Shown here piece by piece: positions 28,168 to 28,880 of a DNA stretch of 30,818 nucleotides (positions are counted from its first letter, which is position 1; each line of letters opens with the position of its first letter). Origin of the DNA: a virus. Its lineage: Duplodnaviria; Heunggongvirae; Uroviricota; Caudoviricetes. The notes beneath the pieces are model-generated. The model saw nothing but the letters and a program-made list of their open reading frames with translations, had not been told where the DNA came from and ran no database searches. The translations under genes were made by a program, and so were the position numbers. The DNA is taken from positions 1 through 30,818 of the IMG/VR virus record IMGVR_UViG_2565956711_000013; one strand, given 5' to 3'.

Positions 28168-28557
28168 TCAGGCGGCTGCACCCGCCGTTTTCTCGTACTT
28201 ACTGATAGTGATTTCGACCTTCCCTTCCGGGATAACCGGCCCCCACTCCACCAGCATTCTTTTCACCTGGCTGTCGTCCACCCACACACCCGCGTGGGTC
28301 AGGGCGTCAAACAGCGCCTTGTTATAGTTGTCCAGATCGCGAAGCCGGTTATCCGGAGGAAACAACACGATCTCCACTGAAGCTGGTGCCGACGTTGGTT
28401 TCGGCAGACGACGTAACTGCTCAATGATGGCTGCACACGCTGCGCTCTGGAATTTTCGCCCCGCCGCGCTTATCAGGCTCTTACCTGCAAGCGCCCCTTT
28501 GTTGGGGTGTCGCCAGTACGTGTTCACGCTGGGCGGAAAAGGCAGTATTAGCTTCAT
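28168..28557 (-). CDS. RusA-family Holliday junction resolvase
   Basis: 129 aa; pattern PPSVNTYWRH...RDLDNYNKALFDALTHAGVWVDDSQV parallels E. coli RusA, including the catalytic Asp-containing DLDN motif. Confidence 0.8.
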   Translation of the reverse strand: MKLILPFPPSVNTYWRHPNKGALAGKSLISAAGRKFQSAACAAIIEQLRRLPKPTSAPASVEIVLFPPDNRLRDLDNYNKALFDALTHAGVWVDDSQVKRMLVEWGPVIPEGKVEITISKYEKTAGAAA

Positions 28558-28880
28558 ACTTTCAGGCCCCTCTCATGTAACCAGTGGGCTGCACGCAGCC
28601 TGGCGTTTGCCTCACCGGCAAGCAGTGCGCGGATAATCCCGACCGCCTCGCTGTCGTCGTCCTTCACCGCGGTATGAAGCGTGATGCCCCGGGCCACGCC
28701 ACGCTTTATCGTGATGACGCCTTTTTTCTCCAGTGCGCGAAGATGCTCCACCGCTGCATTCACTGAACGGTATCCCAGCATGGTTGCCACCTCCTGATTG
28801 GTTGGCGGGAAGCCACGTTCTTTCTGATAAGAAATCAGCATATCCAGCACCTGCTGCTGGCATTGAGTTAACGTCGTCAT
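28554..28880 (-). CDS. LexA N-terminal DNA-binding-domain homolog with no peptidase domain, 108 aa
   Basis: Aligns by eye to the LexA winged-helix domain (LTQCQQQVLDML...GFPPTNQEVATMLGYRSVNAAVEHLRALEKKGVI versus LexA LTARQQEVFDLI...[34 protein letters not shown]); too short for the S24 autocleavage domain; start and stop overlap neighbours as ATGA. Confidence 0.7.
   Translation of the reverse strand: MTTLTQCQQQVLDMLISYQKERGFPPTNQEVATMLGYRSVNAAVEHLRALEKKGVITIKRGVARGITLHTAVKDDDSEAVGIIRALLAGEANARLRAAHWLHERGLKV

Follow-up and report, generated by a model that had tools for sequence, protein, structure and literature searches.

The isolated N-terminal domain of LexA retains some SOS-box binding and repression, and ClpXP must remove it (PMC10584840). 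A truncated LexA homologue is also encoded by the phage GIL01, whose gp6 binds a palindrome that is not a LexA site, GaCACAnnTGTGaC, and activates a late promoter (PMC6182141). In our literature search gp6 was the only characterised truncated phage LexA found, and no functional study of an enterobacterial family of this kind was found. In this work we analysed a stretch of viral DNA of 30,818 nucleotides (Caudoviricetes; IMG/VR record IMGVR_UViG_2565956711_000013, positions 1 to 30,818), hereafter called the window, and focused on the open reading frame (ORF) at positions 28554-28880, which encodes a protein of 108 amino acids resembling the DNA-binding domain of LexA. The sequence is already catalogued, by PHROG 362 and by the NCBI, and one studied example of this kind of protein exists. 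We report that this protein, judged by sequence and model comparisons, is truly homologous to the N-terminal winged helix of LexA and not a generic winged helix, and we consider, tentatively, that it may be a functional LexA surrogate, insensitive to RecA and acting on SOS boxes.

Residues 1-65 of the LexA-like protein match the complete Pfam model LexA_DNA_bind (PF01726, positions 1-65 of 65, E 2.9e-19), with 69 bits for a cut-off of 23.7. BLASTP against Escherichia coli LexA gives 39 identities over 91 positions (43%, E 1e-21), in an alignment that runs through the linker up to LexA residue 87. The sequence-only reading of the window, in which the two proteins had been aligned by eye, had claimed a likeness in the recognition helix, and BLASTP indeed pairs RSVNAAVEHL with the recognition-helix segment of LexA. 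The solved structures nearest to the protein are the LexA entries 1lea and 3jso, and the top matches are all LexA. Two AlphaFold models were obtained, the first from a 10-sequence alignment, with a mean predicted local distance difference test score (pLDDT) of 74.7, and the second from 20 family members, with a mean pLDDT of 84. Using Foldseek, the first model's N-terminal part was superposed on the LexA-DNA complex 3jso_B with a root-mean-square deviation of 1.2 Å over 68 columns at 50% identity. The winged helix of the second model comprises helices at residues 6-22, 28-35 and 40-52 and a beta wing at residues 56-68.

The resemblance ends where the catalytic part of LexA would begin. Only positions 1-91 of the 203 of the NCBIfam lexA model (TIGR00498) are covered, and the score of 70.7 bits lies under the curated equivalog cut-off of 110.95. 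No Peptidase_S24 domain (PF00717) was matched in the protein by Pfam or NCBIfam, and there is no room for one, because the protein stops at residue 108. With neither a peptidase domain nor the conserved cleavage site, and with a sub-threshold equivalog score, the protein is not LexA in the family sense. The part of LexA on which activated RecA (RecA*) acts is thus missing, which is the basis on which insensitivity to RecA had been proposed from the sequence.

The residues with which LexA reads DNA were taken from passages in papers that cite the LexA-DNA structure. One such passage has S39, N41, A42 and E45 making the main contacts to bases in the crystal structure (PMC11442139), another has N41 and E45 touching bases and R28 the backbone (bioRxiv 10.1101/2020.07.14.201889), and an older list, as it appears in a third, includes E44 too (PMC3091678). 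In the BLASTP alignment S39, N41, A42 and E45 are identical in the LexA-like protein. The recognition helix is unchanged in the 13 protein variants found in public phage and prophage loci, no substitution falling there, and among relatives at 40-49% identity S39 is invariant and N41 nearly so. The wing is more basic than that of LexA (TIKRGVARG versus EIVSGASRG). By these comparisons the E. coli subfamily looks built for reading CTGT-like half-sites.

The remainder of the protein is a short tail, for which structure prediction had been proposed as a test for a dimerisation element. Both models show a flexible linker, and the second predicts, with confidence, two helices (residues 74-88 and 93-103) folded as a hairpin. 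Its hydrophobic positions (79, 80, 82, 83, 86, 87, 93, 97, 100 and 101) stay conserved in relatives as distant as 40% identity, and A97 and L101 are invariant across the family. The tail alone had no match in Pfam, and in the Foldseek search of the PDB the winged helix was matched and the tail was without structural match. The hydrophobic stripe of the hairpin is broader than the packing of two helices needs, and the tail is most simply seen, on the model, as a dimerisation module that would form a four-helix bundle in place of the S24 domain. The layout of DNA-binding domain, flexible linker and helical tail parallels the DNA-binding domain, linker and dimerisation domain of LexA. Within the tail, the segment IIRALLAGEA is aligned to GRVAAGEP, the cleavage region of LexA, A88-G89 standing opposite A84-G85 of LexA, and this alignment suggests that the gene arose by truncation of a lexA just beyond the cleavage site.

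The sequence-only reading had also pointed to two SOS boxes at a DinI-like gene of the same prophage. These are the only two exact CTGT-N8-ACAG sites in the window, where 0.36 are expected by chance (Table 1). Both overlap a promoter-like TTGACA-18-AAAAAT and flank its -10. Box 1 is a candidate target of the LexA-like protein and by default a host LexA site. Sites with one mismatch number 16 for 9.7 expected, which is not a clear enrichment. The same arrangement of boxes at dinI is found in related phages.

The best hint that the family is tied to the SOS circuit comes by analogy from a subfamily of LexA-like proteins with an N-terminal extension (118-135 amino acids; loci L005 4531-5408, L094 5476-6357 and L095 4909-6070). 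Its genes are always preceded by a conserved ORF of 75-82 amino acids; these small ORFs share 55% identity with one another, match nothing in Pfam and do not occur in the window. All three loci have, just upstream of the pair, a box with 15-18 of 20 matching positions, an arrangement that resembles the autoregulated host lexA. The L005 box is immediately downstream of a promoter-like TTGCAA-17-AATAAT, itself preceded by a terminator-like hairpin recognised by eye. Ahead of the L094 box are a terminator found by scanning and a -35 region, TTGCAT, read by hand. At L095 the box alone of these upstream elements was seen, and a 95-amino-acid RecA_C-like ORF separates it from the pair.

Boxes were also observed at several other positions in related loci. 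A box matching at 16 of 20 positions, TACTGTAAAAATAAACAGTG, lies on the first codons of a late N6/N4 DNA methyltransferase gene downstream of Q (L008 34172, L009 44085, L010 41023, L007 22135 and L094 8741); in L094 it stands 41 nucleotides upstream of the start codon. The window has no such late methyltransferase gene and carries, just upstream of the holin gene, a one-mismatch site, CTGTTTATTATTTCAG (25152-25167), which overlaps a promoter-like TCAACA-17-AATAAT and matches the consensus at 12 of 20 positions by hand count. Boxes matching at 17-18 of 20 positions, such as TACTGTTTATAAATACAGTA, occur inside coding sequences of CI-type repressors, about 160-230 nucleotides from the start codon (L010 31972-31991, the mEp460 cI; L011 7727-7746, a cI-like gene of phiSTEC1575; L093 838-857). 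Finally, in 8 of 80 IMG/VR loci having this LexA-like gene in common (L012, at 10291-10310, L013, L014, L016, L017, L018, L021 and L038) a spacer of about 190 bp between rusA and a different KilA-N allele holds a hairpin and a box of 16-17 matches in 20, TACTGTATTTATGAACAGTG. This allele looks like a LexA-controlled antirepressor-type gene. The corresponding spacer in the window is 19 nucleotides long and boxless.

The explanation that we tentatively favour builds on what was observed of homology, fold, contact residues, absent cleavage machinery, operon position, selection and canonical boxes. SOS induction would cleave both host LexA and CI, the early operon would be transcribed, and the LexA-like protein would accumulate, its production being confined to the transcription of this early lytic operon (PerC, Dam, LexA-like, RusA, KilA-N, DUF968, Q). 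The winged helix would read CTGT-type half-sites through S39, N41, A42 and E45 as host LexA does, and the C-terminal hairpin would join two copies, substituting for the catalytic and dimerisation domain of LexA. The dimer would sit on operators of the LexA type, the canonical CTGT-N8-ACAG SOS boxes being the most likely ones. RecA* would be unable to inactivate it, since both an S24 domain and a conserved Ala-Gly cleavage site are missing, and the ClpX signal of the natural LexA N-terminal fragment would not be exposed. SOS-box promoters would be re-closed during induction, that of the dinI-like gene in the prophage of the window and, in relatives, those of the KilA-N gene, of the late methyltransferase and of the LexA-like gene itself; SOS genes of the host, and genes under LexA control in rival prophages, would possibly be re-closed too. 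What we infer in this scheme is that the protein dimerises through its tail, binds SOS boxes and represses, and that some biological benefit follows. Its furthest extension, a second SOS phase run by the phage, in which a damage-proof surrogate silences the SOS regulon again before RecA* activity has ceased, is rather unlikely.

Several observations weigh against a LexA surrogate. The sequence-only reading had recognised that the similarity might be confined to a generic winged helix lacking the DNA-contacting residues of LexA. The likeness proved to be specifically to LexA, with the four base contacts kept, while the further contacts R28 and E44 are replaced, by N and V respectively. No family member has an acidic residue at position 44, or an Arg at the variable position 28. 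E45 is retained by about half of the relatives at 40-49% identity and is thus unconserved there, and the Citrobacter member P0086, 65-66% identical, carries a different recognition helix, SVNTIAGH. Since R28 and E44 are replaced, specificity or affinity may differ from those of LexA, either as an altered preference at the base pair read by residue 44 or as a lower intrinsic affinity. For dimerisation the evidence is the model of a single chain and the pattern of hydrophobic residues. Within the window, the LexA-like gene itself has no SOS box nearby. Host LexA accounts just as well for every SOS box found, and several of the boxes sit within shared mosaic modules. In favour of a surrogate, strong boxes number 1-5 in each of all six complete or near-complete genomes that carry the gene (about 0.03 expected from shuffles), and 1, 0 and 0 in lambda, HK97 and HK022, a comparison of six with three related, non-independent genomes which is suggestive only.

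In the main rival explanation the protein is a diverged, phage-specific regulator that represses or activates phage genes from a private operator, possibly in the timing from early to late expression, and ignores host SOS boxes. We regard it as somewhat doubtful. GIL01 gp6, with its operator GaCACAnnTGTGaC at a late promoter, sets the precedent for it; the family-wide replacement of R28 and E44 and the variation of recognition-helix residues in distant members and in P0086 are as it would predict, and a different dimerisation module could set a different spacing of half-sites. Yet the four crystallographic base-reading residues are retained and are invariant in the E. coli subfamily, and when about 1.5 Mb of related loci were searched for non-canonical CTGT/ACAG spacings, N8 with AT-rich spacers alone stood out. 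Peaks at ACAG-N14-CTGT and CTGT-N19-ACAG were rejected as private operators, being GC-rich coding sequence repeated in redundant loci. Late expression, moreover, already has the Q antiterminator. No activator site of the gp6 type over the -35 of a late promoter was identified.

Whichever operator is read, the gene appears to be a working one. Among 87 copies in public phage and prophage loci there are 53 nucleotide haplotypes, encoding the 13 proteins mentioned above, and the ratio of nonsynonymous to synonymous polymorphism (pN/pS) is 0.049, with 41 of 58 polymorphic sites at the third codon position; this pattern indicates strong purifying selection. Of 5426 complete E. coli genomes, 2233 (41%) carry the gene, 2223 of them with at least 80% coverage, and a genome may hold up to four copies. 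It is carried by 61 phage records, including SfV, SfII, SfIV, cdtI, mEp460 and Stx2c- and Stx2k-converting phages, the proteins of which are 95-100% identical; named members are WP_000210152.1, SfV orf42, cdtI orf48 and mEp460 gp46. The carriers have unrelated virion modules, with Mu-like myovirus tails in SfV and 720R4 versus lambda-like tails in cdtI and mEp460, and have in common the early cassette PerC, Dam, LexA-like, RusA, KilA-N, DUF968 and Q. A related-locus search with a diverse alignment returned only E. coli copies at 97-100% identity, and the divergent homologues were obtained from contigs encoding related proteins.

The window contains an SfV-like prophage inserted beside dusA (542-1579; Dus family, E 2e-104), a known integration hotspot, with the integrase gene (1668-2765) immediately adjacent. 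The minus strand carries both the early right operon and the late genes. The LexA-like gene is located between the replication genes and Q and is therefore part of the delayed-early lytic transcript. It would be silent in lysogens, because of this position in a lytic operon and because a constitutive uncleavable repressor would make 41% of E. coli SOS-defective. As had been read from the sequence, the gene is embedded in a nin-like operon, its start and stop codons overlapping the methyltransferase and RusA genes (Table 1). The ATG of the Dam gene is likely at 29530 and overlaps the stop codon of the PerC-family gene as TAATG (29528-29532).

Table 1. Features of the window discussed in the text, with the evidence for each
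Feature	Position	Strand	Evidence or remark
LexA-like gene	28554-28880	minus	108 amino acids plus stop, ATG start; winged helix, linker and two-helix tail
LexA-type winged helix-turn-helix, residues 1-68	28677-28880	minus	AlphaFold pLDDT about 89; Foldseek match 3jso_B
Recognition helix SVNAAVEHLRALEK, residues 39-52	28725-28766	minus	Alignment to LexA; published contact residues
Flexible linker, residues 69-75, low confidence	28656-28676	minus	pLDDT below 50 at residues 71-75 in both models
Helical hairpin, residues 76-108, candidate dimerisation element	28557-28655	minus	pLDDT about 90; conserved hydrophobic positions
ATGA overlap, Dam stop and LexA-like start	28877-28880	minus	Sequence
ATGA overlap, LexA-like stop and RusA start	28554-28557	minus	Sequence
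SOS box 1, CTGTTTATCCATACAG	2768-2783		Between -35 and -10 of the dinI-like promoter; exact CTGT-N8-ACAG
SOS box 2, CTGTATACAAACACAG	2796-2811		Just past the -10; 17/20 to TACTGTATATATATACAGTA; exact CTGT-N8-ACAG
dinI-like gene, 82 amino acids	2827-3075	plus	PF06183, E 1.2e-19
PerC-family (YfdN-like) protein	29530-30024	minus	PF06069; RefSeq name; upstream in the same operon
Phage N6-adenine (Dam-type) methyltransferase	28877-29530	minus	PF05869, E 1e-45; TIGR01712; RefSeq coordinates of homologous prophage
RusA Holliday-junction resolvase	28168-28557	minus	PF05866; PHROG 34
KilA-N domain protein, antirepressor-like position	27339-28148	minus	PF04383, E 2e-22
DUF968 / HNH-like protein	26342-27337	minus	PF06147, E 4e-81
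Q-type antiterminator, end of early operon	25576-26328	minus	PF03589, E 1e-53

Seven loci with homologues at 40-47% identity keep the order replication genes, LexA-like gene, rusA, DUF968 and Q, often with one or two DNA methyltransferase genes before the LexA-like gene and sometimes with an ANT or KilA-N gene before DUF968. The synteny was seen in L001, L005, L092-L095 and annotated phages. In the seven divergent loci rusA follows the LexA-like gene directly or after an ORF of 66-67 amino acids. This neighbourhood is what could be expected if the protein were, instead of a transcription factor, a DNA-binding accessory of recombination or replication in the nin region, such as a partner or targeting factor of RusA. 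It could then be likened to NinH, a small DNA-binding protein whose gene lies between a junction endonuclease and Q in lambda and HK97. However, lambdoid nin regions conserve the order of genes with many unrelated functions, which makes adjacency weak evidence, and the sequence-reading residues of a highly specific repressor would not be expected to be retained in an architectural protein. We therefore consider an accessory role improbable.

The Ala-Gly pair of the tail was considered as a real cleavage site and rejected, as it is unconserved and lies in a segment predicted to be helical with high confidence. A protein-level decoy, in which IIRALLAGEA serves as a pseudo-substrate for the catalytic domain of LexA or CI or for RecA*, would make use of the same segment, and both the TIGR00498 and the BLASTP alignments do span the LexA cleavage-site region, with Ala-Gly at 88-89. 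But the Gly is replaced by Asn in the Citrobacter members P0037 and P0046, distant members lack the motif altogether (LLTRKE, MIDDQP and LVAELP), and the segment is a confidently predicted helix versus a strand and loop in LexA. We also take structure 8TRG to show RecA* engaging the LexA C-terminal domain, which is missing here, and such a decoy is very improbable. That the gene is a decaying, functionless remnant of a captured lexA, as its appearance of a LexA truncated just beyond the cleavage site might suggest, is hardly credible in view of its low pN/pS over 53 haplotypes, the full-length tail kept down to 40% identity, the conserved synteny and the number of E. coli genomes that carry it nearly complete.

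The protein already has names in public records. The NCBI name, used in thousands of genomes, is "LexA family transcriptional regulator", and in PHROG 362, "transcriptional repressor", residues 1-108 match positions 1-106 of the 106 of the profile (E 4.2e-59). The 108-amino-acid protein has been deposited as a repressor, as "SOS-response repressor and protease LexA" and under "RecA-mediated autopeptidases". These names are automatic, and the protease and autopeptidase ones are wrong, because the protein has no S24 domain. The neighbouring Dam gene is often mislabelled "phosphoadenosine phosphosulfate reductase" in phage records. In the literature, the "bully phage" paper on phi1720a-02, which carries the LexA-like gene, credits interference to Cro, and other mentions of "LexA family" concern CI repressors. 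Viral structure and protein libraries commonly contain short proteins that consist of a LexA DNA-binding domain. Many library proteins of 140-260 amino acids (such as P0127, P0129, P0135, P0137 and P0140) match the LexA DNA-binding profile in two separate stretches, and might hold two LexA DNA-binding domains in tandem, as "dimers" made of one chain.

Some further observations were made around the operon and in its relatives. The replication-protein gene (30021-30803) contains, at 30598-30660, two adjacent near-perfect palindromes, GACGCATCAAATTTTGAC / GTCAGATTTTGATGCGTC and GTCAGATTTTGAC / GTCAGAATCTGAC, which are probably origin iterons. A search of positions 24000-30818 for inverted repeats returned only replication-origin iterons and short chance pairs. 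A PADLOC search for defence systems gave no meaningful match. In L094, gene products encoded at 9794-11390, beside the late region, match AcrVA2-like and Cas1 Pfam families.

If the LexA-like protein does bind SOS boxes, induced lysogens of Stx2c- and Stx2k-converting, cdt-converting and Shigella serotype-converting phages would hold a LexA activity that DNA damage cannot remove. This would shape the duration of SOS-driven mutagenesis, toxin expression and the induction of co-resident prophages, and the effect would be widespread, given the share of E. coli genomes in which the gene is found. If the SOS regulon were indeed re-silenced, mutagenic and repair genes of the host, SOS-triggered toxins, colicins and the LexA-controlled antirepressors of rival prophages would be shut down, and some relatives would autoregulate from their own SOS-box promoter. 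A new layer of competition between prophages would then be added in Stx and serotype-converting phages. With a private operator instead, the protein would be one more small phage regulator, of interest mainly for the recycling of the LexA domain.

Compared with known systems, the protein belongs to the same family as the entries of PHROG 362 and the NCBI, with no structural difference. It resembles the N-terminal domain of E. coli LexA and the natural cleavage product LexA(1-84), with which it shares the fold, S39, N41, A42 and E45, and an identity that rises from the 43% of the whole alignment to about 50% within the winged helix. It differs from LexA by the absence of the S24 domain, of Ser119 and Lys156 and of the conserved Ala-Gly, by the replacement of R28 and E44, the more basic wing and the extra conserved two-helix tail, and it lies in a phage early operon, whereas lexA is an autoregulated host gene. 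Unlike LexA(1-84), it does not have the ClpX-recognised C-terminus that cleavage of LexA creates. In its predicted net effect, a repressor that RecA* cannot remove, it resembles the non-cleavable LexA alleles (lexA Ind-, S119A and G85D). Those are full-length, constitutive host proteins that block SOS induction altogether, whereas the phage protein would come from the lytic operon only and is without the whole C-terminal domain. With GIL01 gp6 it shares being a phage-encoded, truncated LexA homologue that is essentially a DNA-binding domain, and it would also share early expression and action once host LexA is gone; gp6, however, has 66 amino acids, no helical tail, and belongs to a tectivirus without a CI repressor. 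BLASTP of the LexA-like protein against GIL01 ORF6 gave no alignment at E <= 100, and because the two show no detectable sequence similarity, the comparison suggests that phages have captured and truncated lexA more than once, from different LexA lineages.

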